A stretch of DNA of 64,000 nt from Escherichia coli (GCF_009931435.1 NZ_CP043414.1); one strand, 5' to 3'; shown: positions 10,969 through 43,947, counted from the stretch's first letter. Notes: a model not told the origin generated them from the sequence alone. Translations and numbers: made by a program.

Positions 10969-11075
10969 CATGCCGGATGCGGCGTGAACGCCTTATCCGT
11001 CCTACAAAATAGTGCAAATTCAATATATTGCACCATCCTCGTAGGCCTGATGAACGTAGCGTATCAGGCTATCAT
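10969..11075. repeat. BIME / REP palindromic units
   Basis: tgccggatgcggcgtgaacgccttatcc ... gtaggcctgatgaacgtagcgtatcaggc, canonical REP consensus in inverted pair. Confidence 0.85.
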
Positions 11076-11123
11076 AAGTAAAAAGGGCGATCTTCCGACC
11101 GCCCTTTTTCTTATTTAATGTGT

Positions 11124-12764
11124 TTACGCGTTTTTCAGAACTTCGCTAACAATCTCAACCGCTTCTTTCTCGATCTGCTTGCGATGTTCTTCACCGAGGA
11201 AGCTTTCGCAGTAGATTTTGTATGCGTCTTCCGTGCCTGACGGACGCGCGGCGAACCAGCCGTTGTCAGTCATCACTTTCAGACCGCCAATAGAAGCACC
11301 GTTGCCCGGTGCCGCCGTCAGGCGCGCGGTGATCGGGTCACCAGCCAGGGTGCTGGCGCTCACCATTTCCGGAGACAGCTTAGACAGCGCCGCTTTTTGT
11401 GCGGAAGTCGCAGCTGCCTGCAAACGGTTATAGCTCGGCGCACCAAAGCGTTTTGCCAGTTCGTTGTAGTGTTCCTGCGGGTTCTTACCAGTGACAGCGG
11501 TGATTTCCGCCGCCAGCAGACACATGATAATGCCGTCTTTATCAGTCGACCACGGCGTACCGTCGAAACGCAGGAAGGAAGCCCCCGCGCTCTCTTCGCC
11601 GCCAAAGCCAAAGCTGCCGTCGAACAGACCATCCACAAACCATTTGAAGCCTACCGGGACTTCTACCAGCTTACGGCCTAAGTCATTGACCACACGGTCG
11701 ATCATCGCAGATGAAACCAGCGTTTTACCGACAGCAACATCTTTGCCCCACTGCGGACGATGCTGGAACAGGTAGTTGATCGCCACCGCCAGGTAGTGGT
11801 TAGGATTCATCAAACCTGCCGGAGTGACGATACCGTGACGGTCATAATCCGGGTCGTTAGCAAATGCCAGATCGAACTTATCACGCAGTGCCAGCAGGCC
11901 CGCCATCGCACACTCGGAGGAGCAGTCCATACGGATCGCGCCGTCTTTATCGAGGTGCATAAAGCGGAAGGTTTGATCGACCTGATCGTTAACGATGGTC
12001 AGGTTAAGGTTGTAATACTCGCCAATACGCTTCCAGTATTCGATACCGGAACCGCCCAGCGGATCAACGCCCAGCGTCAGGCCCGCTTTCTGAATCGCCG
12101 CCATATCAACGATATCGGCCAGACCTTCCACAAACGGCTGCACCAGATCCTGCTCTTTCACATGACCGGATGCCATCGCTTCGTCGAGGGAGATACGCTT
12201 CACACCTTTCAGGCCATCGGCCATCAGTGCGTTGGCCCTGTCCTCCACCACTTTGGTGACGTTAGTATCAGCCGGGCCACCATTTGGCGGATTGTACTTG
12301 ATACCACCATCTTCCGGCGGGTTATGGGACGGTGTAATCACGATACCGTCTGCCAGCGGGCCACCTTTTTTATTGTGAACCAGGATGGCATTGGAAACGG
12401 CAGGCGTCGGAGTGAAGCCATTGTTTTCCTGCACAATAACATCTACGCCGTTCGCTGCCAGCACTTCCAGTACGGAAATGAACGCAGGCTCGGACAGGGC
12501 GTGAGTATCTTTACCCACATAGCAAGGGCCAGTGATGCCGTTTTTCGCACGTTCTTCAGCAATTGCCTGAGCGATCGCCAGAATATGCGGCTCGTTAAAG
12601 CTGTGGCGCGCTGCACTGCCACGGTGACCGGAAGTACCGAATTTCACCGCGTGCTCCGCATTCCCTGCTTCAGGTTTCAGTACATAATATTGCGCCGTCA
12701 GTTGGGCGACGTTAATCAAATCACTCTGTTGTGCAGGTTGGCCTGCACGATTGTGGATTGCCAT
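11124..12764 (-). CDS. pgm: phosphoglucomutase
   Basis: ORF track 11124..12815; start placed at ATG 12764 (MAIHNRAGQ...), 546 aa; TSGHRGS active-site serine motif. Confidence 0.95.
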
Positions 12765-12789
12765 TGCTTTGTCCTTTGTCTGCAACGTT

Positions 12790-13335
12790 TTAGATAGTTC
12801 CGCAAACCTTCTCAATCAATTCCGCCGGGAATTGCATCGACTGCATGATGTGTTCGATCATGCTGCATTTACGGCCGGTGTTGGTGTTGGTGATCACCCA
12901 ATATGGCGTGCCTGGCACATGTTTCGGCTTGGTCTGATTACCATTTTTCAGCAGCGTTTGTTCATCTGCCGCAAAGTAAACGCGTGTACGACCGTGCAAC
13001 GATTCCGTGGCCTCGGCAAACGCCTGGGCGTCAAGAGAATATAGTGTAGACAACAGCAGCATGAAGCGATTGACCGCTCGCTTTTGCTCTGCGTATTCGT
13101 CTGAAAGCAAAAGTTCACGCATTGCGCGAACCTTGTCTTTAATCGTTTTGACCGGCTTCGCTTCGACGATAGCAGGTGACGCAACGCGAACCTCTTTCGT
13201 CACCGGAGCAGCAGGCTGTGATGCGGCGGAAAATTTCAACATACGCCGTAAAATGTCGGATGCGCTCTCGCCGATATGCTTAGTGTGGCTGGCAATATAG
13301 CTGTAGAGTTCATCATCAACTTCAATCGTTTTCAT
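12790..13335 (-). CDS. seqA: replication-origin sequestration protein SeqA
   Basis: ORF track 12790..13413; start placed at ATG 13335 ([11 protein letters not shown]...), 181 aa; synteny with pgm. Confidence 0.93.
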
Positions 13336-13519
13336 CTTAATCCAGTGCAGTGTCTTAGCTGAATACAAGTCGCCAGGAGTATATGAATAAATCCCGGCAG
13401 CGGATAGCGTCAAGCCTGGCTTGCAGAAAAACTCGGATTAAACCTTATTTGTTGCAGCCCTGTGGCACAATGGTCAACATAATACCCTAACCCGACAACG
13501 CGAAAAAAAGAACTTTGCC

Positions 13520-14284
13520 ATGAAATTGAATATCCGCGCGCAAACTGCACAAAACCAGCACAATAATTCTCCCATCGTTCTTGTCCATGGTCTGTTTGGC
13601 AGCCTCGACAACCTTGGCGTACTGGCTCGCGATCTGGTAAACGATCACAATATCATCCAGGTTGATATGCGTAACCACGGTCTTTCCCCGAGAGATCCGG
13701 TGATGAATTACCCGGCGATGGCGCAGGATCTTGTTGATACCCTGGATGCACTGCAGATCGATAAAGCGACATTTATTGGACACTCAATGGGCGGCAAAGC
13801 GGTGATGGCACTGACTGCACTGGCCCCCGATCGCATCGATAAACTGGTGGCGATTGATATCGCGCCGGTCGACTATCACGTACGCCGTCATGATGAGATT
13901 TTCGCGGCTATCAACGCAGTCAGTGAATCCGACGCGCAAACTCGCCAGCAAGCAGCGGCAGTAATGCGCCAGCATCTTAATGAAGAAGGGGTGATTCAGT
14001 TTCTGTTGAAATCTTTTGTTGACGGGGAGTGGCGCTTTAACGTGCCGGTATTGTGGGATCAGTATCCGCATATTGTGGGTTGGGAGAAAATCCCGGCATG
14101 GGATCACCCTGCCCTGTTTATCCCAGGCGGCAATTCTCCGTATGTTAGCGAGCAGTATCGTGATGATTTACTGACACAATTTCCACAGGCACGAGCGCAT
14201 GTGATTGCTGGCGCGGGTCACTGGGTCCATGCTGAAAAACCGGATGCTGTATTACGCGCTATCCGTCGCTATCTCAATGATTAA
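13520..14284 (+). CDS. ybfF: alpha/beta-hydrolase esterase YbfF
   Basis: ORF track 13520..14284, 254 aa; GHSMGG nucleophile elbow. Confidence 0.9.
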   Translation: MKLNIRAQTAQNQHNNSPIVLVHGLFGSLDNLGVLARDLVNDHNIIQVDMRNHGLSPRDPVMNYPAMAQDLVDTLDALQIDKATFIGHSMGGKAVMALTALAPDRIDKLVAIDIAPVDYHVRRHDEIFAAINAVSESDAQTRQQAAAVMRQHLNEEGVIQFLLKSFVDGEWRFNVPVLWDQYPHIVGWEKIPAWDHPALFIPGGNSPYVSEQYRDDLLTQFPQARAHVIAGAGHWVHAEKPDAVLRAIRRYLND

Positions 14285-14423
14285 CGTAACTGATTAAAAA
14301 CCCAGCGTCCGCGTCGCTTTCCGCGCGTGGGCGTTGGCGTGACTCATCGCGCTGATGTATTATGGCGCGCTATCCATCCGGGCAGGCGCCTGGCTGATTG
14401 TTTCCCCCGAAGTCACCAAGATC

Positions 14424-14717
14424 ATGGCCAAAGAACAAACGGACCGTACGACATTAGATCTGTTCGCGCACGAGCGTCGACCGGGACGACCGAAAACTAA
14501 TCCGCTTTCGCGCGATGAACAGCTGCGTATTAATAAACGCAACCAGCTAAAACGCGACAAAGTACGTGGCCTTAAGCGTGTCGAACTGAAGCTGAACGCG
14601 GAAGCTGTCGAGGCGCTGAACGAGCTGGCGGAATCGCGCAATATGAGCCGTAGCGAACTGATCGAAGAGATGTTAATGCAGCAACTGGCGGCGCTGCGTA
14701 GCCAGGGCATCGTTTAA
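14424..14717 (+). CDS. ybfE: small CopG/RHH-like DNA-binding protein YbfE
   Basis: ORF track 14355..14717; start placed at ATG 14424 (MAKEQTDR...), 97 aa, basic and coiled. Confidence 0.8.
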
Positions 14718-14856
14718 TTTTCCACTTTCATGTAGCACAGTGTGCAGTCCTGCTCGTTTGCTGATTCCGCAAGACTGCCTGTTCTGCTATGATTGCCTTT
14801 ATCCGTGGGCAATTTTCCACCCCCATTTCAATAAGTTTCAAGAGGTTATTTCACTC

Positions 14857-15387
14857 ATGGCTATCACTGGCATCTTTTTCGGCAGCGACACCGGTAATAC
14901 CGAAAATATCGCAAAAATGATTCAAAAACAGCTTGGTAAAGACGTTGCCGATGTCCATGACATTGCAAAAAGCAGCAAAGAAGATCTGGAAGCATATGAC
15001 ATTCTGCTGCTGGGCATCCCAACCTGGTATTACGGCGAAGCGCAGTGTGACTGGGATGACTTCTTCCCGACTCTCGAAGAGATTGATTTCAATGGTAAAC
15101 TGGTTGCGCTATTTGGTTGTGGTGACCAGGAAGATTACGCTGAATACTTCTGTGACGCATTGGGCACCATCCGCGACATCATTGAACCGCGCGGCGCAAC
15201 TATCGTTGGTCACTGGCCAACTGCGGGCTACCACTTCGAAGCATCAAAAGGTCTGGCAGATGACGACCACTTTGTCGGACTGGCTATCGACGAAGATCGT
15301 CAGCCGGAACTGACCGCTGAACGTGTAGAAAAATGGGTTAAACAGATTTCTGAAGAGCTGCATCTCGACGAAATTCTCAATGCCTGA
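14857..15387 (+). CDS. fldA: flavodoxin 1
   Basis: ORF track 14740..15387; start placed at ATG 14857 ([16 protein letters not shown]...), 176 aa, flavodoxin FMN-binding signature. Confidence 0.95.
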
Positions 15388-15392
15388 TGTAA

Positions 15393-15425
15393 TACGGCGT
15401 AGACTCATGTCTACGCCGTATTAAT
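15393..15425 (+). terminator. rho-independent terminator after fldA
   Basis: atacggcgtagac tcat gtctacgccgtat perfect 13-bp stem followed by taat. Confidence 0.65.
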
Positions 15426-15592
15426 AGATAATGCCAATCAAAATAATTGCTACAAATTTGTAACTTTTGCCGTGGTACCTGTACAATGTTCCGGTGTTCA
15501 AGTGGCCTTGCCGTTGTAAATGTAAGCTGAGCCACGTTTTTATTAACAATATTTGCCAGGGACTTGTGGTTTTCATTTAGGCGTGGCAATTC

Positions 15593-15611
15593 TATAATGA
15601 TACGCATTATC
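15593..15611. promoter_or_regulatory. Fur box overlapping the uof/fur promoter (autoregulation)
   Basis: tataatgatacgcattatc matches 16/19 of GATAATGATAATCATTATC; overlaps a TATAAT -10 element and the uof start. Confidence 0.7.
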
Positions 15612-15683
15612 TCAAGAGCAAATTCTGTCACTTCTTCTAATGAAGTGAACCGCTTAGTAACAGGACAGATTCCGCATGACTGA
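15597..15683 (+). CDS. uof: upstream-of-fur leader ORF Uof (28 aa)
   Basis: Not in ORF track. ATG 15597 to TGA 15681-15683 translates MIRIISRANSVTSSNEVNRLVTGQIPHD; stop overlaps the fur start (ATGACTGA). Confidence 0.8.
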   Translation: MIRIISRANSVTSSNEVNRLVTGQIPHD

Positions 15684-16122
15684 TAACAATACCGCCCTAA
15701 AGAAAGCTGGCCTGAAAGTAACGCTTCCTCGCTTGAAAATCCTGGAAGTTCTTCAGGAGCCGGACAACCATCACGTCAGTGCGGAAGATTTATACAAACG
15801 TCTGATCGATATGGGTGAAGAAATTGGTCTGGCTACGGTTTATCGCGTACTGAACCAGTTTGACGATGCTGGTATCGTCACCCGCCACAATTTTGAAGGC
15901 GGTAAATCCGTATTTGAACTGACACAGCAACATCACCACGATCACCTGATCTGCCTCGACTGCGGTAAGGTTATCGAATTTAGTGATGATTCCATCGAAG
16001 CGCGTCAGCGTGAAATCGCCGCAAAACATGGCATTCGCCTGACTAACCATAGTCTCTATCTTTACGGTCACTGTGCCGAAGGCGATTGCCGCGAAGATGA
16101 GCACGCGCACGAAGGCAAATAA
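15676..16122 (+). CDS. fur: ferric uptake regulator Fur
   Basis: ORF track 15676..16122, 148 aa; HHHDH and CxxC metal-binding motifs. Confidence 0.97.
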   Translation: MTDNNTALKKAGLKVTLPRLKILEVLQEPDNHHVSAEDLYKRLIDMGEEIGLATVYRVLNQFDDAGIVTRHNFEGGKSVFELTQQHHHDHLICLDCGKVIEFSDDSIEARQREIAAKHGIRLTNHSLYLYGHCAEGDCREDEHAHEGK

Positions 16123-16140
16123 GCCAGTCTGAACGAGAAA

Positions 16141-16165
16141 AGCCAACCTGCGGGTTGGCTTTTTT
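16141..16165. terminator. terminator between convergent fur and chiQ
   Basis: agccaacc tgcg ggttggct followed by ttttt. Confidence 0.75.
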
Positions 16166-16205
16166 ATACAAGGGACATAAGAAAAGCGAGAGTTACAGCT
16201 CTCAC

Positions 16206-16532
16206 TTATTTGTTATTGCTGCGAATTTCCTGCCAGACCTTATCACAATCGGTTTTCACCGCCTGGTCATTACCGGTTTGCGTTGCCTGAATGCACTGCT
16301 GATAATCCAGCACACGGACACTTTCCTGCTCGGCAAATTGCTGATGTTGTTTCTCTTTCTTCAGCACGTTTAACACGCTCTGACAGGCTTCAATTTTTTC
16401 CGGCGAACCTTGCGCGGTGTTGATACAGGCGCTGTAAGCTTCTTTCAGATGGCTGTCTTCCTGTGGCGCGGTGGATTGTGCACAAGCCACCAGCCCCGAT
16501 GCCATCATGGCGATGAGAATCAGTTTTTTCAT
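16206..16532 (-). CDS. chiQ: lipoprotein ChiQ (YbfN)
   Basis: ORF track 16206..16532, 108 aa; signal peptide with lipobox LVAC; downstream of chiP on same strand. Confidence 0.85.
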   Translation of the reverse strand: MKKLILIAMMASGLVACAQSTAPQEDSHLKEAYSACINTAQGSPEKIEACQSVLNVLKKEKQHQQFAEQESVRVLDYQQCIQATQTGNDQAVKTDCDKVWQEIRSNNK

Positions 16533-16581
16533 TGCAAATTCCTCAAACGTGCGGCAGGCACAAAACCTGCCGCGTCGGGCA

Positions 16582-17988
16582 TCAGAAGATGGTGAATGGT
16601 GCGATTACCATAAATTTCACGTCACGCTCATCCTGGAAGATGTTGCCGTAACCACCGCCCCAGCTTGGGATGTCGGAGTGGTTGTCGTATTCGGTAAAGT
16701 GCAGTTTGAACATCGTGCCTTTGGCGCGACCGTCCTGAATGGTGTAGACCGCATCCAGGCTGTATGCAGACTCTTCAATAGTCCGGTTCTTGTCGTAGTA
16801 CGCATCCGGATTGCTCTGCCAGGTAGCGGGTTTAGCATCCCATGCGTAAACGTAGGAAGCGCCGATGGCGAAGCCTGGAAGATTCCAGTTTTTCAGGTCA
16901 TACATCGCACCGAAGAAGACCGCTTTTTCGCCGTTGGCGTTGAAGTCAGAACGGTTATCCCACCAGATATCCAGGCGACCGTTCGAGGAAGCATAGGTTG
17001 GAGTCATACGTTGCAGGAAGTATCCCTGCTGACCGTCGGCTTTAACCCAGGTGCCTTCCAGACGCAAATCCACTACGTCAGCCGCCCGGTAACCAAAGGT
17101 CAACGCTTGCAGCCAGGCAGTGCCGTCGTAAAGGTCGTTGACGCTGCGATCGTCAACTTTATCGCGCGTACCGTAGAACTGGTAGCTGGTGGTTAACGGG
17201 CTACCGGCGATATCAAATTTATAGCTGGCTTTGGCAAAATACTGATCAATATACCCTTCCGCCTGACCAAACGCCGCTTCCAGTACGAAGTTATTTTTGA
17301 AGTCGTACTTCGCCCCAAGGGAGTGTAGATAATCAACTTTAGTGGTTTTATCGTTCTGATAAAACTCATCCATTTCCAGATGCCACGGCGCTTTATATTC
17401 GTTGGTCCACATGTAGGAGAAACTCAACGCACCAGCATCGCCGTAATCAAAATTCGCCCCCGCTTCCGCCCCCTGATAAGTACCCGGCATAAAGCTCCAG
17501 TGCGGCGCTAACAGCGTCTGACCGGTTGGCTGAATATAACCTGCCCGCGCCCACACCGGACCGTATTTAAATTTGGCCGCTGCTTTATACAGGCTTATAC
17601 CGCTTTTATCGCCGGACCAGTCTTCGTCATAGGCTTTATTACTTTTTGAAAACGCGATTTCGTTCGGGTGAGAGCTGTCGCCGTTTTCCGCCATTTCAAT
17701 CGCCGTAAACGCGGCAATATCAAGGCCGAACATATCAGCAGCATAACCAGACTGAAAATCGAGGTTGGCGTTCCAGGTGGAATGAGAAAGGTTGGTTTTG
17801 TATTTGTCGCCGTCGGTAACGTCTTTACGGTCGCGTTCACGCTGCCAGTAATAGATACCGCCGGTTAAGGTTGAATCGTCGATGAATCCTTCGGCGCGAG
17901 CCTCCGGCATTGCCATAAAGCCCGACATTGCTGTAACACTGGCGATAGCCAGCGCCAGCGTACTACGTTTGCCACTAAACGTACGCAT
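16582..17988 (-). CDS. chiP: chitoporin ChiP (OprD-family outer-membrane porin)
   Basis: ORF track 16582..17988, 468 aa; signal peptide, C-terminal aromatic residue (…FTIF) typical of beta-barrels. Confidence 0.93.
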
Positions 17989-18342
17989 GGGTTAATCCTC
18001 TTTGACGTATAAATTGCTGCACCAAAGGTGAACAGCGAAAAAAATAAAAATTAAAAAAGTAGCGTTGAGAAAAGTCTCGCTGACTACAGGAACAGACTAT
18101 TTTTCGCGACGCGAATTATCAATCTCTTTCTGTAACCAGAATGTAAGAACATGAGCAACCGCACATATTTTGATGATTTTTGTTACAAGGCTTAAGTTTG
18201 TAGTTGAAAGGTTTACAAAAGAATAAAAGCCTGAGTTTCCAGCAAGATGAAAGCGGTTACATTTTATTTAATTATGCTTTGTGATTTTAAATTTGTTTTA
18301 TGGATAAATTGTGAAACGGAATTAATTCGCGAAGAAAAGCAG

Positions 18343-18375
18343 AAAAAAAACGCCGCGGAGCGCGGCGTTTGGGTT
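18343..18375. terminator. bidirectional hairpin terminator (serves glnS on the minus strand)
   Basis: A8 - cgccgcg gag cgcggcg - tttgggtttg; T-tract on both strands. Confidence 0.75.
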
Positions 18376-18387
18376 TGTTTGCTATTT

Positions 18388-18560
18388 CTTGCCGGATGCG
18401 GCGTGAACGCCTTATCCGGCCTACAAAAGCACGCAAATTCAATATATGGCAGAGATCATGTAGGCCTGATAAGCGTAGCGCATCAGGCAATTTAGCGTTT
18501 GAAACTGTTTCTATGTTTCTTGCCGGATGTGGCGTAAATGCCTCACCCGGCCTGGTAGAA
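18388..18560. repeat. BIME with three REP units
   Basis: gccggatgcggcgtgaacgccttatccggcctac ... gtaggcctgataagcgtagcgcatcaggc ... gccggatgtggcgtaaatgcctcacccggcc. Confidence 0.85.
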
Positions 18561-18567
18561 CTTAAAA

Positions 18568-20232
18568 CTACTCGCCTACTTTCGCCCAGGTATCACGCAG
18601 CCCAACGGTGCGGTTAAATACCGGTTTTTCCGCCGTAGAATGGCGGCTGTCGAGGCAGAAATAACCTTCACGCTCAAACTGGAATGCTTTGCCCGCTACC
18701 GCGTCTTTCAGCGACGGTTCAGCAAAGCCCTGTTTGATCACCAGCGATTCCGGGTTAATCACCGACAGGAAATCATCCGCAGCACCTGGGTTCGGCACGC
18801 TGAACAGACGATCGTACAGGCGGATTTCAACCGGCAGCGCATGTGCCGCGCTCACCCAGTGAATAACGCCTTTCACTTTACGACCATCTGCCGGATCTTT
18901 GCTTAAGGTGTCGGCGTCATAAGTACAGAAGATGGTGGTGATGTTGCCTTCGGCATCTTTCTCCACGCGTTCAGCCTTAATGACGTAAGCATTACGCAGA
19001 CGCACTTCTTTACCCAGCACCAGACGTTTGTACTGCTTGTTAGCTTCTTCGCGGAAATCGGCGCGGTCGATCCAAATCTCACCGCTAAACGGCACCTGAC
19101 GGCTGCCCATTTCCGGTTTGTTCGGATGGTTCGGCATGGTGACCATTTCGCCTTCGCCCTGATAGTTTTCGATAACCAGTTTCACCGGATCGATAACTGC
19201 CATTGCGCGCGGGGCGTTTTCGTTGAGATCTTCACGAATGCAGGATTCCAGCGACGCCATCTCAATGGTGTTGTCCTGCTTGGTCACGCCAATGCGTTTG
19301 CAGAACTCACGAATAGAAGCCGCAGTGTAACCACGACGACGCAGACCGGAAATGGTCGGCATACGAGGATCATCCCAGCCTTCAACGTGCTTGTCGGTCA
19401 CCAGCAGGTTCAGCTTACGCTTGGACATCACGGTGTATTCCAGATTCAGGCGCGAGAATTCGTACTGGCGCGGGTGAACAGGAATGGTGATGTTATCCAG
19501 CACCCAGTCATACAGGCGACGGTTGTCCTGGAATTCCAGCGTACACAGAGAGTGCGTAATACCTTCCAGCGCATCGCTGATGCAGTGGGTGAAGTCGTAC
19601 ATCGGGTAGATGCACCACTTGTTACCGGTCTGGTGGTGTTCAGCAAACTTAATGCGGTACAGCACCGGATCGCGCATCACGATAAACGGCGAAGCCATGT
19701 CGATTTTCGCGCGCAGGCAGGCTTTACCTTCTTCAAAACCACCGGTACGCATTTTTTCGAACAGCGCCAGGTTCTCTTCAACGCTGCGGTCGCGGTACGG
19801 GCTGTTTTTACCCGGCTGAGTCAGGGTGCCACGATATTCGCGGATCTGTTCCGGTGTCAGTTCATCAACATACGCCAGGCCTTTATTGATCAGTTCGATC
19901 GCATAGGCGTGGAGCTGATCAAAATAATCGGAGGAGTAACGGACGTTACCAGACCAGTGAAAACCTAACCACTCTACGTCGTTTTTGATCGAATCGACAT
20001 ACTCGATATCTTCTTTTACCGGGTTAGTGTCGTCGAAACGCAGGTTGCACTGGCCTTTATAGTCCTGGGCGATCCCGAAGTTCAGGCAGATAGATTTCGC
20101 ATGGCCAATATGCAGATAGCCATTCGGCTCCGGCGGGAAACGGGTGTGTACTGTGGTGTGCTTACCACTGGCCAGATCTTCATCGATGATCTGACGGATA
20201 AAGTTAGTCGGGCGGGCTTCTGCCTCACTCAT
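18568..20232 (-). CDS. glnS: glutaminyl-tRNA synthetase
   Basis: ORF track 18568..20232, 554 aa; class I HIGH (HIGH at N-terminus) and MSK motifs. Confidence 0.97.
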
Positions 20233-20352
20233 CGTGGATTCCTCAAAGCGTAAACAACGTATAACGGCGTATGATCTTATAAGCGGGACAGGCTGACAAC
20301 TGTTAGTTAGTGAAAATCGAAAATCTCACTGAGATTATGGGGATGATTGATG

Positions 20353-20388
20353 AAAAAAAAAGCGGCAGAGAAGATCTCCACCGCTTTT
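20353..20388 (-). terminator. rho-independent terminator after nagE (minus strand)
   Basis: On minus strand aaagcggtgg ... gccgcttt stem followed by T9. Confidence 0.65.
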
Positions 20389-20408
20389 GCCAGTCCTGCG
20401 TCATTGTT

Positions 20409-20489
20409 GGATGCGACGCTTAAGCGTCTTATCCAACCTGGACTGAGCTTTTGTAGGCCTGATAAGACGCGTCATGCGTCGCATCAGGC
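20409..20489. repeat. REP elements (two units)
   Basis: ggatgcgacgcttaagcgtcttatcc and gtaggcctgataagacgcgtcatgcgtcgcatcaggc. Confidence 0.8.
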
Positions 20490-20499
20490 ATGAAGCAGA

Positions 20500-26064: not shown

Positions 26065-26817
26065 ATGACCATTAAAAATGTAATTTGCGATATCGACGGC
26101 GTGCTGATGCACGATAACGTCGCCGTACCGGGTGCAGCGGAATTTTTGCACGGGATTATGGATAAAGGCCTGCCGCTGGTGTTGCTGACCAACTATCCTT
26201 CGCAGACCGGGCAAGATCTGGCGAACCGCTTTGCCACTGCGGGTGTCGATGTGCCGGACAGCGTGTTTTATACCTCCGCGATGGCGACCGCCGATTTCCT
26301 GCGTCGCCAGGAAGGTAAGAAAGCGTATGTGGTGGGCGAAGGCGCACTGATTCATGAACTGTACAAAGCCGGTTTCACTATTACCGATGTGAACCCTGAT
26401 TTTGTGATTGTTGGCGAAACGCGTTCCTACAACTGGGACATGATGCATAAAGCAGCCTATTTCGTCGCTAACGGTGCACGCTTTATCGCCACCAACCCGG
26501 ACACCCACGGGCGCGGTTTTTATCCGGCCTGTGGCGCGCTATGCGCGGGGATCGAAAAAATCTCCGGACGTAAACCGTTCTATGTTGGTAAGCCGAGTCC
26601 GTGGATCATCCGCGCAGCATTAAACAAAATGCAGGCGCATTCGGAAGAAACGGTGATTGTCGGCGATAACTTGCGCACCGACATTCTGGCGGGCTTCCAG
26701 GCCGGTCTGGAGACGATTCTGGTGCTTTCTGGTGTTTCATCGCTCGACGATATCGACAGTATGCCGTTCCGCCCAAGCTGGATTTACCCGTCAGTCGCTG
26801 AAATCGACGTTATCTGA
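26065..26817 (+). CDS. nagD: HAD-family UMP phosphatase NagD/UmpH
   Basis: ORF track 26065..26817, 250 aa; DxDG (CDIDGV) HAD motif at N-terminus. Confidence 0.94.
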   Translation: MTIKNVICDIDGVLMHDNVAVPGAAEFLHGIMDKGLPLVLLTNYPSQTGQDLANRFATAGVDVPDSVFYTSAMATADFLRRQEGKKAYVVGEGALIHELYKAGFTITDVNPDFVIVGETRSYNWDMMHKAAYFVANGARFIATNPDTHGRGFYPACGALCAGIEKISGRKPFYVGKPSPWIIRAALNKMQAHSEETVIVGDNLRTDILAGFQAGLETILVLSGVSSLDDIDSMPFRPSWIYPSVAEIDVI

Positions 26818-26868
26818 ATACCACCCACGTCTGCGGACGTGGTTGGCTCTGATGACAAACGCCAAACT

Positions 26869-26967
26869 GCCTGATGCGCTACGCTTATCAGGCCTACGCA
26901 GCTCCTGCAATATATTAAATTTTCATGCTTTTGTAGGCAGGATAAGGCGTTCACGCCGCATCCGGCA
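26869..26967. repeat. BIME / REP units
   Basis: gcctgatgcgctacgcttatcaggcctac ... gtaggcaggataaggcgttcacgccgcatccggca. Confidence 0.85.
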
Positions 26968-27213
26968 TGAACAAATCGCACTTTGTCAGCAATTTGGCCC
27001 CCGTAAAATATAACCATTTAATAAAACCCGCTAAAAATTATCGATTCATCAATAAATACATCCTCACACCAGACCTTTTTTCACCAATCGACAATCACCA
27101 TTACGTTTTTTATTTTCCCCCTGCCAAATCGCTTGCGCACAGTGCTGCTTTGCGGCATTTTTTTAAACAAGCAAACACAACAAGCAACAAATACCAGGTT
27201 AACGGAGAAGGTT

Positions 27214-28891: not shown

Positions 28892-28920
28892 GCCCCGGAG
28901 AAATCCGGGGCTGTTTCAGT
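28892..28920 (+). terminator. terminator after asnB
   Basis: gccccgga gaaa tccggggc followed by tgtttcagtt. Confidence 0.65.
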
Positions 28921-29357
28921 TATTGAGCTGCTTGTTGATTCTGATATGCAGTAAGGAAATGTTCCGGGTTTGCCACATCACTGTTTGACAACTCATCACT
29001 GTAGGCCACCGACCAGGTCGCCTGCTCATCCGGAATATGCAGGCTGCCATTCCCCTCTTTCAGGCGTAATAACTCAAAAGATTTGCCCTTAATTACGGCG
29101 GTATAGGATTTTTCACCTTCCTGTAATGCTTTCACTTTACAGCGAAAAATCTGGCCATCGATGTCATTATCAACATGCGATACCTGAATGAGGGCTTCAT
29201 TAGAGGCTTTCGGCCCTATCCGCATCATCCACACCACAGCGCCTTCCTGCCCACGATAGCCAAAAACATATTTCCCGATTTCCGGTTTGACCGTATCGGC
29301 AAACGCAGATTGCATGAGTAATAACGCCCCCATCAGCGCCGTCATAAAACGCAGCAT
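28920..29357 (-). CDS. hypothetical secreted protein (145 aa, cleavable signal peptide)
   Basis: ORF track 28920..29357; ATG with gaggga 7 nt upstream; N-terminus MLRFMTALMGALLLMQSAFA then DTVKPE (AxA signal-peptidase site); no family recognised by eye. Confidence 0.6.
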   Translation of the reverse strand: MLRFMTALMGALLLMQSAFADTVKPEIGKYVFGYRGQEGAVVWMMRIGPKASNEALIQVSHVDNDIDGQIFRCKVKALQEGEKSYTAVIKGKSFELLRLKEGNGSLHIPDEQATWSVAYSDELSNSDVANPEHFLTAYQNQQAAQ

Positions 29358-29620
29358 AGTATTCCCTCAATAAATCGCCTGAAGTGGTAGCAGAGATGCA
29401 GGCGTAGCGATCCCTGCCCTGTCCTGTTGCAACGGGCCAGTATTTCATAGATTAATTTCCTACCACTATTGTTGAATTCCGAATTTCATCCTGTATGACA
29501 AAAGAATGGCTGTAGGGTGGGGAAAAAACACAAAGTAAACAATAATTGACGAATATAGCGCCACGCTGTTCGCAACCTAACCAAACAGTCACTTTCGAGC
29601 AATTTTCCTTGAAAAAGAGG

Positions 29621-30392: not shown

Positions 30393-30400
30393 CATTAAAA

Positions 30401-30430
30401 AAGCTCGCTTCGGCGAGCTTTTTGCTTTTC
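30401..30430 (+). terminator. rho-independent terminator of the tRNA operon
   Basis: aagctcgc ttcg gcgagctt followed by tttgcttttc; preceded by A-run. Confidence 0.85.
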
Positions 30431-30444: not shown

Positions 30445-30535
30445 GTCGAATGCGATGTTGACACGTCTTATTCTTCAAAGTCGGATGCGACGCTGATGCG
30501 TCTTATCCGACCTACAGTTGGCATGCATCCGGCAA
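30445..30535. repeat. REP-like palindromic units
   Basis: gtcgaatgcgatgttgacacgtcttattc and cggatgcgacgctgatgcgtcttatccgacctac. Confidence 0.75.
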
Positions 30536-33297: not shown

Positions 33298-33327
33298 GGC
33301 CCGCCGTTCCGGTGGGCCTTGTTTTTT
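33298..33327 (+). terminator. hairpin plus T-tract after miaB (likely partial terminator, ybeZ follows)
   Basis: ggcccgcc gttcc ggtgggcc followed by ttgttttttc. Confidence 0.6.
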
Positions 33328-33443
33328 CTCTCTTTATCCCCATCTTTATCTCAATGCTTGCGCCTTTTTCCTGTGGCGTGAATAATTTCCTTATAGGCCG
33401 GTGAATGTTCAGCTTCCGGCGGCATACAGATAAGAGGAACGGT

Positions 33444-34948: not shown

Positions 34949-35037
34949 TTTGCCAGGCATTTGACTGGCAGACGTCCCCGCCGTTGGTGATTAACGACGG
35001 CGTTTTGATTAACTAACATGAGAACCCATACGACGCC

Positions 35038-35916
35038 ATGAGCGACGACAATTCACACAGTAGTGACACGATAAGCAACAAGAAGGGATTTTTCTCCCTG
35101 TTACTCAGCCAACTTTTCCACGGTGAACCGAAAAACCGTGACGAACTGCTGGCGCTGATCCGTGATTCCGGGCAGAACGACCTTATCGACGAAGATACGC
35201 GCGATATGCTCGAAGGGGTGATGGACATCGCAGACCAACGCGTTCGCGACATCATGATCCCCCGCTCCCAGATGATTACCCTGAAACGCAACCAGACGCT
35301 GGACGAATGCCTTGATGTCATCATCGAGTCCGCCCACTCACGTTTCCCGGTGATTAGCGAAGACAAAGATCACATTGAAGGGATTCTGATGGCGAAAGAC
35401 TTGCTGCCGTTTATGCGCAGCGATGCAGAAGCCTTCAGCATGGACAAAGTGTTACGTCAGGCGGTTGTCGTTCCTGAAAGTAAGCGCGTAGACCGGATGC
35501 TGAAAGAGTTTCGCTCTCAGCGTTACCACATGGCGATCGTCATTGACGAATTCGGTGGGGTTTCCGGTCTGGTGACCATTGAAGATATCCTGGAACTGAT
35601 TGTTGGTGAGATTGAAGACGAGTATGACGAAGAAGATGATATCGACTTCCGTCAGCTGAGTCGTCATACCTGGACCGTGCGCGCACTGGCTTCCATCGAA
35701 GATTTCAACGAAGCCTTCGGCACCCACTTTAGCGATGAAGAAGTCGACACCATCGGCGGTCTAGTGATGCAGGCATTTGGGCATCTCCCGGCGCGTGGCG
35801 AAACCATCGACATCGACGGTTACCAGTTCAAAGTGGCGATGGCCGACAGTCGGCGTATTATTCAGGTTCATGTCAAAATCCCGGATGACTCACCCCAGCC
35901 AAAGCTGGATGAATAA
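35038..35916 (+). CDS. corC: CBS-domain Mg/Co efflux-associated protein CorC
   Basis: ORF track 35038..35916, 292 aa. Confidence 0.93.
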
Positions 35917-35940
35917 AACCGAAACTGGATAGATAACTAC

Positions 35941-37479: not shown

Positions 37480-37490
37480 TCCCTTCTTAT

Positions 37491-37558
37491 CGTGCCGGAA
37501 TACATCCCGTATTTCGGCACGCTCGCCGGATGTGGTATCAGTGCGTTATCCGGATGAC
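37491..37558. repeat. hairpin plus REP-like palindrome downstream of lnt
   Basis: cgtgccgga ... tcggcacg stem, then gccggatgtggtatcagtgcgttatccggatgac. Confidence 0.6.
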
Positions 37559-37578
37559 AAAATTCCCCTATCCAACTT

Positions 37579-37594
37579 TGGCACATCTATTGCT
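37579..37594 (+). promoter_or_regulatory. candidate sigma-54 (-24/-12) promoter upstream of gltI
   Basis: TGGCAC-atcta-TTGCT matches TGGCAC-N5-TTGCW; TGCACC / GGTAGCACC half-site-like motifs nearby. Confidence 0.35.
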
Positions 37595-37875
37595 TTGTTA
37601 TACAAGGCAAAGCTTGAACCCGCGTCAGAACAACCCGGTTGCACCACAGCAATCCACCGGTAGCACCAAAAGAGTGCATTTTAAGAATTTTGCTTCGGAA
37701 TGGTGCGGCGCATCTCGCAAAAACAAACAATAAAACATCAATATCTTTACATTTAGCCAAACTAAATGTTACCTAACAAACACAACACTGCACAATAAAG
37801 TTGCAGATGATAACAACACAAACACTCACAACGGGTATCCATGCGTTCTTAACGCAGAAGATAAAGGAGTTGGAT

Positions 37876-38784
37876 ATGCAATTACGTAAACCTGCCACAG
37901 CAATCCTGGCCCTGGCGCTTTCCGCAGGCCTGGCACAGGCAGATGACGCCGCCCCGGCAGCGGGCAGTACGCTGGACAAAATCGCCAAAAACGGTGTGAT
38001 TGTCGTCGGTCACCGTGAATCTTCAGTACCTTTCTCTTATTACGACAATCAGCAAAAAGTGGTGGGTTACTCGCAGGATTACTCCAACGCCATTGTTGAA
38101 GCAGTGAAAAAGAAACTCAATAAACCGGACTTGCAGGTGAAACTGATTCCGATCACCTCACAAAACCGTATTCCGCTGCTGCAAAACGGCACTTTCGATT
38201 TTGAATGTGGTTCAACCACCAACAACGTCGAACGCCAAAAACAGGCGGCTTTCTCTGACACTATTTTCGTGGTCGGTACGCGCCTGCTGACCAAAAAAGG
38301 CGGCGATATCAAAGATTTTGCCGACCTGAAAGGCAAAGCCGTAGTCGTTACTTCCGGCACTACCTCTGAAGTTTTGCTCAACAAACTGAATGAAGAGCAA
38401 AAAATGAATATGCGCATCATCAGCGCCAAAGATCACGGTGACTCTTTCCGCACCCTGGAAAGCGGTCGTGCCGTTGCCTTTATGATGGATGACGCTCTGT
38501 TAGCCGGTGAGCGAGCGAAAGCGAAGAAACCAGACAACTGGGAAATCGTCGGCAAGCCGCAGTCTCAGGAAGCCTACGGTTGCATGTTGCGTAAAGACGA
38601 TCCGCAGTTCAAAAAGCTGATGGATGACACTATCGCTCAGGTGCAGACCTCCGGTGAAGCGGAAAAATGGTTTGATAAGTGGTTCAAAAATCCAATTCCG
38701 CCGAAAAACCTGAACATGAATTTCGAACTGTCAGACGAAATGAAAGCACTGTTCAAAGAACCGAATGACAAGGCACTGAACTAA
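37876..38784 (+). CDS. gltI: glutamate/aspartate ABC transporter periplasmic binding protein
   Basis: ORF track 37801..38784; start placed at ATG 37876 (MQLRKPATAILALALSAGLAQA signal peptide) with aaggag upstream, 302 aa. Confidence 0.94.
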   Translation: MQLRKPATAILALALSAGLAQADDAAPAAGSTLDKIAKNGVIVVGHRESSVPFSYYDNQQKVVGYSQDYSNAIVEAVKKKLNKPDLQVKLIPITSQNRIPLLQNGTFDFECGSTTNNVERQKQAAFSDTIFVVGTRLLTKKGGDIKDFADLKGKAVVVTSGTTSEVLLNKLNEEQKMNMRIISAKDHGDSFRTLESGRAVAFMMDDALLAGERAKAKKPDNWEIVGKPQSQEAYGCMLRKDDPQFKKLMDDTIAQVQTSGEAEKWFDKWFKNPIPPKNLNMNFELSDEMKALFKEPNDKALN

Positions 38785-38789
38785 TTACA

Positions 38790-38941
38790 AGAACCAGGGG
38801 CGGAAATTCCAGCCCTCTCGATTGTTACGTAGCACGGACAGACTATACGCCTGATGGTCGTTCCCCATCGGGCCTGAAAACCGCAATACGCTGGGTAACA
38901 ATCTTCGAGGGTAGCAGTTAACGCTGCTACCCTCTTTTTTC
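38790..38941 (+). ncRNA. sroC: sRNA SroC region (gltI 3' end / gltI-gltJ spacer), ending at an intra-operon terminator
   Basis: 169-nt spacer between gltI and gltJ ending in gagggtagcag ttaacg ctgctaccctc + T7 (38907..38941); 5' boundary not determinable from sequence alone. Confidence 0.5.
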
Positions 38942-38953
38942 TGGAGTAGATTT

Positions 38954-39694
38954 ATGTCTATAGACTGGAACTGGGGTATTTTTTTACAACAAGCCCCGTT
39001 CGGCAACACCACCTATCTTGGTTGGATCTGGAGTGGTTTTCAGGTGACGATCGCTTTGTCGATCTGCGCCTGGATTATCGCTTTCCTCGTCGGTTCATTT
39101 TTCGGCATTTTACGTACCGTTCCAAACCGTTTTCTCTCCGGTCTGGGTACGTTGTATGTCGAACTGTTCCGCAACGTGCCGTTGATTGTGCAATTCTTTA
39201 CCTGGTATCTGGTTATCCCTGAACTGTTGCCGGAAAAAATCGGCATGTGGTTTAAGGCAGAACTAGACCCCAATATTCAGTTTTTCCTCTCCTCCATGCT
39301 CTGTCTGGGACTGTTTACTGCAGCTCGTGTTTGCGAACAAGTACGCGCCGCGATTCAGTCGCTGCCGCGTGGGCAAAAAAATGCCGCGCTGGCAATGGGT
39401 CTGACGCTACCGCAGGCTTACCGCTACGTACTGTTGCCTAACGCTTATCGCGTTATCGTCCCGCCAATGACCTCTGAGATGATGAACCTGGTAAAAAACT
39501 CCGCCATCGCCTCGACCATCGGTCTGGTGGATATGGCGGCGCAGGCCGGTAAATTGCTCGATTACTCGGCCCACGCCTGGGAGTCATTTACCGCCATTAC
39601 GCTGGCGTATGTGTTGATTAACGCTTTTATCATGCTGGTGATGACGCTGGTTGAACGTAAAGTTCGCCTGCCCGGCAACATGGGGGGCAAATAA
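38954..39694 (+). CDS. gltJ: glutamate/aspartate ABC transporter permease
   Basis: ORF track 38954..39694, 246 aa, multi-TM. Confidence 0.94.
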
Positions 39695-40368
39695 TGTACG
39701 AGTTTGACTGGAGTTCCATTGTTCCTTCCCTGCCATATCTGCTCGACGGGCTGGTGATCACCCTGAAAATCACCATCACGGCGGTGGTCATTGGTATTTT
39801 GTGGGGTACGTTGCTGGCAGTAATGCGCTTGTCCAGCTTTGCGCCGATTGCCTGGTTTGCCAAAGCCTACGTTAACGTGTTCCGTTCGATCCCGTTAGTC
39901 ATGGTTTTGCTATGGTTTTACCTGATTGTGCCGGGTTTTCTGCAAAACGTGCTGGGATTATCGCCAAAAAATGATATCCGTTTAATTTCGGCGATGGTGG
40001 CGTTTTCGATGTTTGAAGCGGCCTACTATTCAGAGATTATCCGTGCCGGTATTCAAAGTATTTCCCGTGGGCAGTCGAGCGCCGCGCTGGCGTTGGGGAT
40101 GACTCACTGGCAGTCGATGAAACTGATTATTCTGCCGCAGGCGTTCCGCGCGATGGTGCCGCTGCTGCTCACTCAGGGCATCGTACTGTTCCAGGATACC
40201 TCGCTGGTGTATGTGTTATCTCTGGCCGATTTCTTCCGTACCGCCTCAACCATTGGTGAGCGTGATGGTACACAGGTCGAAATGATTCTGTTTGCCGGGT
40301 TTGTTTATTTCGTTATTAGCCTTAGCGCATCGTTGTTGGTCAGCTACTTGAAAAGAAGGACAGCATAA
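39694..40368 (+). CDS. gltK: glutamate/aspartate ABC transporter permease
   Basis: ORF track 39694..40368, 224 aa, multi-TM; 1-nt overlap with gltJ. Confidence 0.94.
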
Positions 40369-41093
40369 TGATTACCCTGAAAAATGTTTCAAAATGGTAT
40401 GGTCACTTTCAGGTGCTGACCGACTGCTCAACCGAAGTGAAAAAAGGTGAAGTAGTGGTGGTTTGTGGTCCGTCAGGCTCTGGCAAATCAACACTGATTA
40501 AAACCGTCAACGGCCTCGAACCGGTGCAGCAAGGTGAAATCACCGTCGATGGTATCGTGGTTAATGATAAGAAAACCGATCTGGCAAAGCTGCGTTCCCG
40601 CGTCGGGATGGTGTTCCAGCATTTCGAGCTGTTCCCTCATTTGTCGATTATTGAAAACCTGACCCTGGCGCAGGTAAAAGTGCTTAAACGCGATAAAGCG
40701 CCCGCTCGTGAAAAAGCCCTGAAATTGCTGGAGCGCGTCGGGCTTTCCGCACATGCCAATAAGTTTCCGGCGCAGCTTTCCGGCGGTCAGCAGCAGCGTG
40801 TGGCGATCGCTCGCGCATTGTGCATGGATCCTATCGCGATGCTGTTCGACGAACCGACATCGGCGCTGGATCCGGAGATGATTAACGAAGTGCTGGACGT
40901 GATGGTGGAACTGGCGAACGAAGGAATGACCATGATGGTGGTGACCCACGAAATGGGCTTTGCCCGTAAAGTGGCGAATCGGGTGATCTTTATGGACGAG
41001 GGTAAAATTGTCGAAGACTCGCCGAAAGACGCTTTCTTCGATGATCCGAAATCGGACCGCGCAAAAGACTTCCTCGCGAAAATCCTGCATTAA
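40368..41093 (+). CDS. gltL: glutamate/aspartate ABC transporter ATP-binding protein
   Basis: ORF track 40368..41093, 241 aa; Walker [18 protein letters not shown] signature, Walker B. Confidence 0.95.
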
Positions 41094-41210
41094 TCACTCT
41101 GGCGCGCATACCCAAGTGCGCGCCATCTCACGCTTTATCGTTTCGCTCCTCGTATCTGTTACATCCTGGCGTTACCCTTGTCGCAAAGAAGCACACAACA
41201 AGGAGCAACA

Positions 41211-42146
41211 ATGGCACTGCCGATTCTGTTAGATTGCGACCCAGGTCATGACGACGCTATCGCAATAGTTCTCGCCCTCGCCTCACCAGAGCTTGATGTC
41301 AAAGCAATTACGTCTTCCGCCGGAAACCAGACACCAGAAAAAACCTTACGCAATGTTCTGCGTATGCTGACCTTGCTTAATCGCACCGATATTCCGGTAG
41401 CAGGCGGCGCGGTAAAACCATTAATGCGTGATTTGATTATCGCGGACAATGTGCACGGCGAAAGCGGTCTCGACGGCCCGGCATTACCGGAACCGACGTT
41501 CGCACCGCAAAACTGTACGGCGGTGGAGCTGATGGCGAAAACGCTGCGTGAAAGTGCGGAACCTGTCACGATTGTTTCTACCGGACCGCAAACTAACGTT
41601 GCCTTGCTGCTCAATAGCCATCCGGAACTGCATAGCAAAATCGCCCGTATCGTGATTATGGGCGGCGCAATGGGGCTTGGTAACTGGACGCCAGCCGCCG
41701 AGTTTAATATTTATGTTGACCCGGAAGCGGCAGAAATTGTTTTCCAGTCAGGGATCCCGGTGGTGATGGCCGGTCTGGATGTTACCCACAAAGCACAAAT
41801 CCACGTTGAAGACACCGAGCGTTTCCGCGCGATTGGCAACCCTGTTTCAACCATTGTTGCCGAACTGCTGGATTTCTTCCTCGAATATCACAAAGACGAA
41901 AAATGGGGCTTTGTGGGCGCACCGCTGCATGACCCATGCACCATCGCCTGGCTGTTGAAACCAGAGTTGTTTACCACTGTTGAGCGCTGGGTTGGCGTGG
42001 AAACACAGGGGAAATATACTCAGGGCATGACGGTTGTTGATTATTATTATCTGACAGGCAATAAACCGAATGCCACTGTAATGGTCGATATTGATCGTCA
42101 GGGCTTTGTTGATTTACTGGCTGAGCGTCTGAAATTTTACGCTTAA
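41211..42146 (+). CDS. rihA: pyrimidine-specific ribonucleoside hydrolase
   Basis: ORF track 41178..42146; start placed at ATG 41211 ([16 protein letters not shown], DxDxxxDD motif) with aaggag upstream, 311 aa. Confidence 0.94.
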
Positions 42147-42229
42147 CACACCACATTGATTAAGATCACCACGCTTTCACAGGGTGGTCTTAATCTGTTT
42201 ATCTCTTTTTCTTTCAAGATATAAATGCA

Positions 42230-43900
42230 ATGGATAATGCAGAACTCGCCATTGGTATCGATCTCGGCACTACCAATAGTTTAATTGCCGTCTGGAAAGA
42301 CGGTGCCGCGCAATTAATTCCAAATAAGTTCGGTGAATATTTAACACCATCCATCATTAGTATGGATGAAAATAATCATATTTTAGTCGGAAAACCGGCT
42401 GTATCACGGCGCACTTCGCATCCGGATAAAACCGCCGCATTATTTAAACGCTCAATGGGCAGTAATACCAACTGGCGGTTAGGCAGCGACACATTTAACG
42501 CACCAGAACTGTCCTCTTTGGTCTTACGTTCATTAAAAGAAGATGCCGAAGAATTTCTGCAACGTTCTATTAAAAATGTGGTGATCTCTGTTCCGGCTTA
42601 TTTCAGTGATGAACAACGCAAGCATACCCGTTTAGCAGCGGAGCTAGCCGGGTTAAATGCGGTACGCTTAATTAATGAACCCACAGCAGCTGCGATGGCA
42701 TATGGCCTGCATACGCAACAAAATACCCGCTCGCTGGTTTTTGATCTCGGTGGCGGCACGTTTGACGTCACGGTGCTCGAATACGCCACGCCGGTGATTG
42801 AAGTTCACGCCTCCGCTGGCGACAACTTTCTTGGCGGCGAAGATTTTACTCATATGCTGGTGGATGAAGTTTTAAAACGCGCCGCAGTGGCTAAAAACAT
42901 GCTCAACGAAAGTGAGCTGGCAGCCCTGTACACCAGCGTGGAAGCGGCAAAATGCAGCAATCAATTACCGCTGCAAATTAGCTGGCAGTATCAGGAAGAA
43001 ACGCGTGAGTGCGAATTTTACGAGAACGAACTGGAAGATTTGTGGTTGCCGCTGCTCAATCGCTTGCGAGTGCCGATTGAACAGGCGTTGCGCGATGCAC
43101 GTCTGAAGCCAAGTCAAATCGACAGTCTGGTGCTGGTTGGCGGCGCATCACAAATGCCGCTGGTGCAGCGAATCGCCGTGCGTCTGTTTGGCAAATTACC
43201 GTATCAAAGTTACGACCCGAGTACTATTGTCGCGCTGGGCGCAGCGATCCAGGCCGCCTGCCGCTTACGCAGCGAAGACATTGAAGAAGTGATCCTCACC
43301 GATATTTGCCCCTACTCCTTAGGTGTTGAAGTTAACCGCCAGGGCGTTTCCGGCATTTTCTCACCGATTATTGAACGAAACACCACTGTACCGGTGTCGC
43401 GTGTAGAAACTTACTCGACCATGCACCCGGAACAGGATTCAATTACGGTTAACGTCTATCAGGGAGAAAACCACAAAGTTAAAAATAACATTCTGGTAGA
43501 ATCCTTCGATGTGCCGTTGAAGAAAACCGGGGCTTATCAGTCGATTGATATTCGCTTTAGTTATGATATCAACGGGTTGCTTGAAGTTGACGTGCTTCTG
43601 GAAGACGGCAGCGTTAAGTCCAGAGTCATTAACCACAGCCCGGTAACGTTAAGTACCCAGCAAATTGAAGAGAGTCGGGCAAGGTTATCCGCATTAAAAA
43701 TTTATCCGCGCGATATGCTTATCAACCGTACCTTTAAGGCCAAACTGGAAGAGTTGTGGGCGCGGGCGCTGGGTGACGAGCGAGAAGAGATCGGCCGGGT
43801 GATCACCGATTTTGATGCGGCGTTGCAGTCAAACGATATGGCCCGCGTCGATGAAGTTCGGCGACGGGCGAGCGATTATTTGGCTATTGAGATCCCTTAA
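42230..43900 (+). CDS. hscC: Hsp70-family chaperone HscC (truncated substrate-binding lid relative to DnaK)
   Basis: ORF track 42230..43900, 556 aa; IGIDLGTTNS and DLGGGTFD Hsp70 signatures. Confidence 0.94.
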   Translation: MDNAELAIGIDLGTTNSLIAVWKDGAAQLIPNKFGEYLTPSIISMDENNHILVGKPAVSRRTSHPDKTAALFKRSMGSNTNWRLGSDTFNAPELSSLVLRSLKEDAEEFLQRSIKNVVISVPAYFSDEQRKHTRLAAELAGLNAVRLINEPTAAAMAYGLHTQQNTRSLVFDLGGGTFDVTVLEYATPVIEVHASAGDNFLGGEDFTHMLVDEVLKRAAVAKNMLNESELAALYTSVEAAKCSNQLPLQISWQYQEETRECEFYENELEDLWLPLLNRLRVPIEQALRDARLKPSQIDSLVLVGGASQMPLVQRIAVRLFGKLPYQSYDPSTIVALGAAIQAACRLRSEDIEEVILTDICPYSLGVEVNRQGVSGIFSPIIERNTTVPVSRVETYSTMHPEQDSITVNVYQGENHKVKNNILVESFDVPLKKTGAYQSIDIRFSYDINGLLEVDVLLEDGSVKSRVINHSPVTLSTQQIEESRARLSALKIYPRDMLINRTFKAKLEELWARALGDEREEIGRVITDFDAALQSNDMARVDEVRRRASDYLAIEIP

Positions 43901-43906
43901 ACACGG

Positions 43907-43947
43907 CTGCCGGATGCGGCATAAACGCTGCATCCGGCATCGGCGCA
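43907..43947. repeat. REP-like palindrome between convergent hscC and djlC
   Basis: gctgccggatgcggcataaacgctgcatccggcatcggcgc. Confidence 0.75.

Follow-up and report, generated by a model that had tools for sequence, protein, structure and literature searches.

Repetitive extragenic palindromic (REP) units and BIME arrangements at eight intergenic sites of a 64-kb Escherichia coli chromosome segment

The window analysed here, a 64,000-nucleotide (64-kb) stretch of DNA, was identified by megablast as a segment of the Escherichia coli chromosome. It was collinear, in reverse orientation, with the kdpB to lipB interval of K-12 MG1655 (approximately 661.6-726.2 kb) at 94.5-96.8% identity, and the complete gene map gave each K-12 gene of this interval a counterpart in the window, while an Rfam search returned sroC and a cluster of seven tRNA genes. 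Eight intergenic sites within this segment carried a total of 14 units of the repetitive extragenic palindromic (REP) family, eight of them canonical (GTAG with an imperfect palindrome) and six of them relics or fragments that had no GTAG. The best explanation, in which we place high confidence, is that these elements are typical E. coli REPs (palindromic units) organised as bacterial interspersed mosaic elements (BIMEs). Such repeats are already known biology, and the current understanding of REPs is unchallenged by them.

A search with the REP consensus, which had been proposed as the check on the original prediction of REP/BIME sequences in this window, bore that prediction out. The left half-site GCCGGATGCGGCG, with up to 2 mismatches, was matched 17 times versus 2.95 expected (0 of 100 shuffles reached 17), and the right half-site was matched 5 times versus 0.13 expected, a number that no shuffle reached. 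With 0 matches expected in each case, the full y consensus was matched three times (10972-11005, 18391-18424, 26933-26966), the z1 consensus three times (11041-11069, 18460-18488, 26869-26897), and a z2-stem pattern with a variable gap twice (20453-20489, 30480-30515). We also made a profile from ten units and scanned it over all 64 kb with filters off. At a cut-off of E < 0.1 it matched 14 places (9453-9470, 10971-11005, 11041-11069, 18390-18424, 18460-18489, 18521-18554, 20406-20440, 20453-20490, 26868-26897, 26933-26967, 30445-30471, 30480-30515, 37525-37553 and 43908-43938), all of which lay within the intervals previously named as REP/BIME, and REP-family sequence was present in every one of those intervals. 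No REP unit was seen in the profile scan at 1-9400 or 44000-64000. An independent repeat finder recovered the same families (D4, D6, D10, D11, I1-I4, I6). Further support came from Rfam models of REP origin, with ES036/CssrF matching at the three y-L-z1 elements and naRNA4 matching below threshold over most of the REP sites. Folding compared with dinucleotide shuffles gave z-scores of -3.2 to -6.8 at every site except the 9453-9470 fragment, and single units folded at -12 to -21 kcal/mol, with no stem-loop formed by 9453-9470 and a weak one by 30445-30471. Chance palindromes were also considered and were rejected by the shuffle tests. Curated REP features were sought in the K-12 RefSeq record for the official REP numbering, and none were listed there.

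In the published definitions, y units measure 35 nt, z1 units 29 nt and z2 units 37 nt, and all follow a GTAG and carry an AA/GC bulge (PMC8266576), with consensus sequences for Y and Z2 given in Table 1 of PMC2817692. The window units were alike in length (35, 29 and 37-38 nt), 5' GTAG, AA/GC bulge, extragenic position and high copy number, and differed from the consensus at 0-3 positions. GTAG was found 5' of the stem foot in eight units (10971-11005, 11041-11069, 18390-18424, 18460-18489, 20453-20490, 26868-26897, 26933-26967, 30480-30515) and was lost in six (18521-18554, 20406-20440, 30445-30471, 37525-37553, 43908-43939, 9453-9470). We therefore classed these six as relics, and the term canonical, applied more widely in the original prediction, was kept for the former eight. 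The AA/GC mismatch was predicted to form a symmetric 2x2 internal loop in y-type and z2-type units, while z1 units carried AA on the 5' side; the bulge was missing from 43908-43939 and 18521-18554. The window thus departed from the published family in the six units that lost GTAG and/or the bulge, and also in two GTAG or CCAG units with TCGGAT or TTGGAT feet instead of CCGGAT or CCTGAT.

Three of the sites showed the architecture of BIME-1 (10971-11069, 18390-18489 and 26868-26967, the third oppositely oriented). BIME-1 consists of y and z1 joined by a long L linker that often carries an integration host factor (IHF) site, while BIME-2 consists of y and z2 with short linkers, tandemly repeated (PMC3333891). 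The window elements had the exact layout of BIME-1 (RIP/RIB elements), with each y match paired to a z1 match on the other strand at a distance of 35 nt, the GTAG ends pointing towards the linker at all three, and each element in single copy. The element in the pgm-ybfP gap (A) comprised a left y-type unit (10971-11005, minus strand; one mismatch to the y consensus, profile E = 2.7e-9) with GTAG and the symmetric AA/GC loop, an L linker (11006-11040), and a right 29-nt z1-type unit (11041-11069, plus strand; three mismatches to the z1 consensus, E = 2e-4) with GTAG. It was 83% identical over 106 nt to the element in the glnS 3' region (B; repeat-finder match D6 at 18386-18491), in which both the y-type unit (18390-18424, minus strand; E = 5.8e-10) and the z1-type unit (18460-18489, plus strand; E = 1.6e-6) matched their consensus exactly on either side of the linker (18425-18459). 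The element between umpH (nagD) and asnB (D) ran in the orientation opposite to A and B, with an exact z1-type unit (26868-26897, minus strand; E = 1.6e-6), a linker (26898-26932) and a y-type unit (26933-26967, plus strand; one mismatch, E = 3.5e-9).

The linker of approximately 35 nt was conserved among the three BIME-1 elements, as seen in the direct and inverted repeat pairs (D6, I1, I2; the linker of B aligned with the other two through D6 and I2) and in matches to the Rfam family ES036/CssrF. The latter scored 45.5 bits at 11006-11048, above the gathering score of 37.6, while the match at 26890-26932 (minus strand; 36.9 bits) was just below it and the one at 18425-18467 (24.6 bits) was sub-threshold. 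By direct reading, the linker of A contains ATTCAATATATTG, which agrees with the IHF core WATCAANNNNTTR at 12 of 13 positions; a putative core was found at 11 of 13 positions in the linkers of B and D, each with one further mismatch relative to K-12. At least 40 places per genome were matched by the BIME-1 100-mer in 5,425 of 5,426 E. coli genomes.

The chiP-glnS site differed from a simple BIME-1 in having a third unit alongside, so that three units lie within 18388-18560, as had been predicted. This unit (18521-18554, minus strand; E = 3.7e-7) was y-like but carried CCAG where GTAG is expected; its stem was almost perfect (hairpin -20.7 kcal/mol, z = -4.55), and it ended 13 nt from the glnS stop codon.

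Units with z2-type stems were found at two sites. The nagE-glnS gap held a doublet (20406-20490), present as a single copy, in which a z2-type unit (20453-20490, plus strand; exact match to the z2-stem pattern, E = 1.8e-8) that has GTAG, and whose loop exceeds the published consensus by 1 nt, ended 9 nt from the nagE stop, and was joined by an 11-nt linker to an inverted inner partner (20406-20440, minus strand; E = 5.1e-7) with a z2-type stem, the AA/GC bulge, a TTGGAT foot and CCAG for GTAG. Pairing z2 with an inverted partner over a short linker is a likeness to BIME-2 and atypical BIMEs, but the doublet was not tandemly amplified and its partner carried CCAG in place of GTAG; rather than BIME-2 it is better termed an atypical or partial BIME. 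The convergent gap that separates the tRNA operon terminator from the ubiF stop held a canonical unit (30480-30515, minus strand; z2-stem pattern, E = 3.7e-8, fold -21.5 kcal/mol) whose stem is of the z2 type, with GTAG and a TCGGAT foot. It was accompanied by a stray REP tail half at approximately 30521-30535 and by a decayed copy in direct orientation (30445-30471, minus strand; E = 0.054) that had no GTAG, folded weakly (-5.3 kcal/mol) and was 67% identical to the 20401-20439 family (D10).

The remaining three sites held relics. A near-perfect 13-bp palindrome in the hscC/djlC convergent gap (43908-43939) combined two REP tail halves (TGCCGGATGCGGC/GCTGCATCCGGCA) and lacked both GTAG and the bulge; it was matched by the profile on both strands (E = 1.4e-4 and 0.11) and folded at -29.6 kcal/mol (z = -6.15). 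A degenerate REP-like palindrome (37525-37553, minus strand; E = 0.051), 45 nt past the lnt stop and 63% identical to the y reference (D4), had no GTAG and was conserved in K-12. The interval 37491-37558 had been predicted as REP in its entirety, which held for this palindrome; the adjoining hairpin at 37493-37521, with a 13-bp stem (GTGCCGGAATAC...GTATTTCGGCAC) 13 nt past the lnt stop, was a separate non-REP structure with no T-run, also conserved in K-12. The K-12 IS5D insertion of approximately 1.2 kb in the same lnt-gltI gap (near 37780) was absent, leaving the gltI upstream region uninterrupted in the window. A predicted fragment near 9449-9462 was recovered as a REP tail (ATGCCGCATCCGGCAGG) after the potE terminator (9453-9470, plus strand; E = 0.047), its fold not significant (z = -0.71). 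Abutting it is ybfI (9463-9612), a kdpE-derived pseudogene that is an 89-92% identical duplicate of the kdpE 3' end (5039-5183); the copy starts at 9469 (D8), which places the REP half at the duplication junction.

All eight sites were intergenic and 3' of a gene when K-12-mapped genes were used, so the earlier statement that almost all units lie downstream of stop codons applied to every site. Because intergenic DNA makes up 11.5% of the window, the chance of eight out of eight sites being intergenic is approximately 3e-8. The original prediction also held that the palindromes are concentrated at convergent gene ends, and this we did not find. Six sites lay between co-directional genes (potE>ybfI, pgm<ybfP, glnS<chiP, nagE<glnS, umpH>asnB, lnt>gltI) and two between convergent genes (glnX>|<ubiF, hscC>|<djlC). 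Among gaps of at least 40 bp, REPs were observed in 2 of 6 convergent versus 6 of 24 tandem gaps, giving no convergent enrichment at this sample size (Fisher p = 0.65), and REPs were absent from four other K-12-mapped convergent junctions (ybfG/ybfP, fur/chiQ, ybeT/djlB, ybeQ/ybeL). A 145-aa open reading frame (ORF) at 28920-29357 (minus strand), if real, is convergent with asnB and would make a fifth such junction. Genome-wide, MG1655 REPs are approximately 40% tandem, 60% convergent and 1% divergent (2026 preprint), and the convergent claim echoes this genome-wide tendency and not the window's own pattern. None of the 6-7 divergent gaps of the window contained a REP. The known rule that REPs lie 3' of genes and avoid promoter-only divergent gaps holds here.

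The distance from stop codon to nearest unit, by direct reading, ranged from 7 nt for hscC through 9 for nagE, 13 for glnS, 20 for djlC, 30 for ubiF, 45 for lnt and 50 for umpH to 54 for pgm. Liang, Rudd and Deutscher reportedly found in 2015 that REPs lying no more than approximately 15 nt from a stop codon can lower translation, which would apply to hscC, nagE and glnS. At glnS and nagE the stop codon is followed by the units and then by an intrinsic-terminator-like hairpin with a T-run, located on the minus strand downstream of the three glnS units (18348-18370; 10 pairs, tail TTTTTCTGCT) and of the nagE doublet (20358-20388; 14 pairs, tail TTTTTCATCA). With the T-run hairpin distal to them, the REPs of these two genes would belong to the 3' untranslated region (UTR). 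At pgm, potE and the tRNA operon the terminator-like hairpin came first and the REPs lay beyond it.

At seven of the eight sites K-12 has the units of the window, altered by nothing more than point differences. The nagE-glnS doublet was full-length in 902 of 5,426 genomes, and K-12 and three other strains that we read carried in its place a single palindrome, TTGGATGCGACGC-NNNN-GCGTCGCATCAGGCA, which corresponds to the doublet minus approximately 52 bp between two GCGTC direct repeats. In strain E2348/69 an SLC13-family permease gene was observed by nagE where glnS was expected, next to the collapsed REP palindrome. The REP-bearing gap beside nagE is a site of gene-content variation. At chiP-glnS, strain IMT16316 had one y unit versus the three units of the window and K-12. 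Individual loci were read for these comparisons. The orthologous pgm-ybfP element was counted in at least 2,014 genomes and the chiP-glnS element in at least 2,456. BIMEs are a documented source of intergenic polymorphism (PMC3333891; also Bachellier 1997, as cited in PMC2817692), and the strain-to-strain unit changes at nagE-glnS and chiP-glnS are documented BIME behaviour.

The sequence, structure, position, copy number and polymorphism of the units were observed directly, and their function is read from the literature on the family. TnpA_REP, the REP-associated tyrosine transposase (RAYT, YafM), binds REP and cleaves at CT beside the inverted partner or in the linker (PMC3333891, PMC8266576), and the yafM gene lies elsewhere in K-12 (PMC2817692). 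By analogy, units with GTAG and the AA/GC bulge would serve as single-strand hairpin substrates of an enzyme encoded elsewhere in the chromosome, and the combined action of TnpA_REP and of slippage or recombination between units would account for the creation, amplification and loss of copies. Units without GTAG would no longer be recognised by the transposase and would persist only as hairpins. The glnS and nagE units, judged by position, would be transcribed into the mRNA 3' UTR. REP stem-loops are described as stabilising upstream mRNA against 3' exonucleases and as partial, context-dependent Rho-dependent attenuators, so the RNA stem-loops of the window may block 3'-to-5' exonucleases and partly attenuate read-through into the gene that follows. 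The BIME-1 linker is a predicted IHF binding site, as BIME-1 linkers elsewhere bind IHF (PMC3333891, PMC2817692). Pseudomonas REPINs, which are RAYT-mobilised REP doublets, offer a parallel in that inverted pairs are likely the mobile or functional unit and the RAYT is encoded elsewhere in the genome; they differ in sequence family and RAYT group, and E. coli BIME pairs join two unit types (y with z1 or z2).

Several points weigh against this account. What is said of transcription, mRNA stabilisation, IHF binding and RAYT cleavage is carried over from published systems. The published functional effects of REPs depend on context, and a 2026 preprint found no global half-life effect. The cognate RAYT/yafM gene was not within the gene map of the 64-kb window, the only part of the source genome covered. 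Six of the 14 units, having no GTAG, fall outside the strict family definition, and the pgm BIME-1 may be little transcribed given its position beyond a terminator-like hairpin.

GC-rich hairpins 7-54 nt past stop codons could also be the Rho-independent terminators of the upstream genes. We consider this very unlikely, since no REP hairpin was followed by a T-run or appeared in the lists of terminator-like sites, separate hairpins with T-runs adjoin the REPs at 18348-18370, 20358-20388, 30398-30423 and 9402-9427, and a single sequence recurring at 40 or more places in a genome is not what terminators specific to individual genes would show. The Rfam names suggest another alternative, that the sites are dedicated small-RNA genes (ES036/CssrF, naRNA4/CssrE), for which the above-threshold ES036 match at 11006-11048 and the sub-threshold matches over most REP sites to naRNA4 (a family derived from REP325) could be cited. 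However, in each of the three BIME-1 elements the ES036 match fell precisely on the L linker, which implies that in this window the Rfam model describes a dispersed repeat and not a unique small-RNA gene; every naRNA4 match (22.8-43 bits) was under the gathering score of 59.5; and no promoter-like site was conspicuous at the elements. REP325 itself is reported to function locally, in the 3' UTR, and not as an RNA that organises the nucleoid (2026 preprint). We consider small-RNA genes very unlikely as well.

The small ORFs that the original prediction had called spurious (18247..18495, 18369..18617, 26657..27013) do exist and run through the REPs. That they and their antisense partners encode real small proteins is the least credible of the alternatives and may practically be dismissed, even though the frames are open for 67-118 codons and NCBI PGAP calls a hypothetical protein over REPs in some genomes. 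They had no Pfam match, and K-12 has no coding sequence at these places. The peptides are simply the repeat translated (AGCGVNALSGLQ, PDALRLSGL, GRIRRSRRIR), with similar ORFs on both strands; 26657..27013 runs over the 3' end of umpH in another frame, and the underlying DNA differs by whole REP units between strains. Recognising these ORFs as REP/BIME sequence is mainly a matter of annotation hygiene, as the repeats explain several spurious small ORFs of the kind annotated as hypothetical proteins in real genomes, and in the same way the BIME-1 linker explains the ES036 small-RNA match in the window. Since the number of units at a given locus is not constant within E. coli, mRNA stability or read-through at the 3' UTRs of glnS, nagE, pgm, umpH, lnt, hscC/djlC and ubiF may differ between strains.

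A more speculative suggestion, which we regard as possible though doubtful, concerns the palindrome at 43908-43939 and the collapsed nagE-glnS allele. Perfect palindromes with neither GTAG nor bulge might form a recurrent class of collapsed REP doublets, arising by deletion between short direct repeats in an inverted pair (e.g. GCGTC...GCGTC, 20423/20475). Having lost the features recognised by RAYT, they would be frozen in place and kept only as symmetric hairpins usable by transcripts of either strand.

Further observations concern the source of the window and its other differences from K-12. Of 5,426 complete genomes, 5,417 aligned with at least 80% of an 11-kb piece of the window, and the highest identity reached was 98.3-98.6%. 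With approximately 96% identity to K-12 and a best value near 98.5% over 11 kb among 5,426 genomes, the source seems, from the sequence comparison, to be a sparsely sampled lineage or a mosaic. Several genes were more divergent from K-12 than the overall value of approximately 96%, namely speFL (86.7%), chiQ (91.7%), speF (92.2%) and ubiF (93.5%). The 145-aa ORF between asnB and the metT tRNA operon has a signal-peptide-like N-terminus, had no match in a Pfam search and is not present in K-12, relative to which the window has extra DNA at approximately 29008-29435; at least 80% of the segment was found in 985 of 5,426 E. coli genomes, which annotate a hypothetical protein there. An intact DUF2625 ORF of 252 aa (9627-10385; Pfam E = 2.3e-86) was observed where K-12 has the ybfG pseudogene. 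We also observed a tandem paralogous duplication of djlC-ybeU and djlB-ybeR (45053-45825 versus 47850-48622), with 72-76% identity in three blocks at an offset of 2,797 nt.

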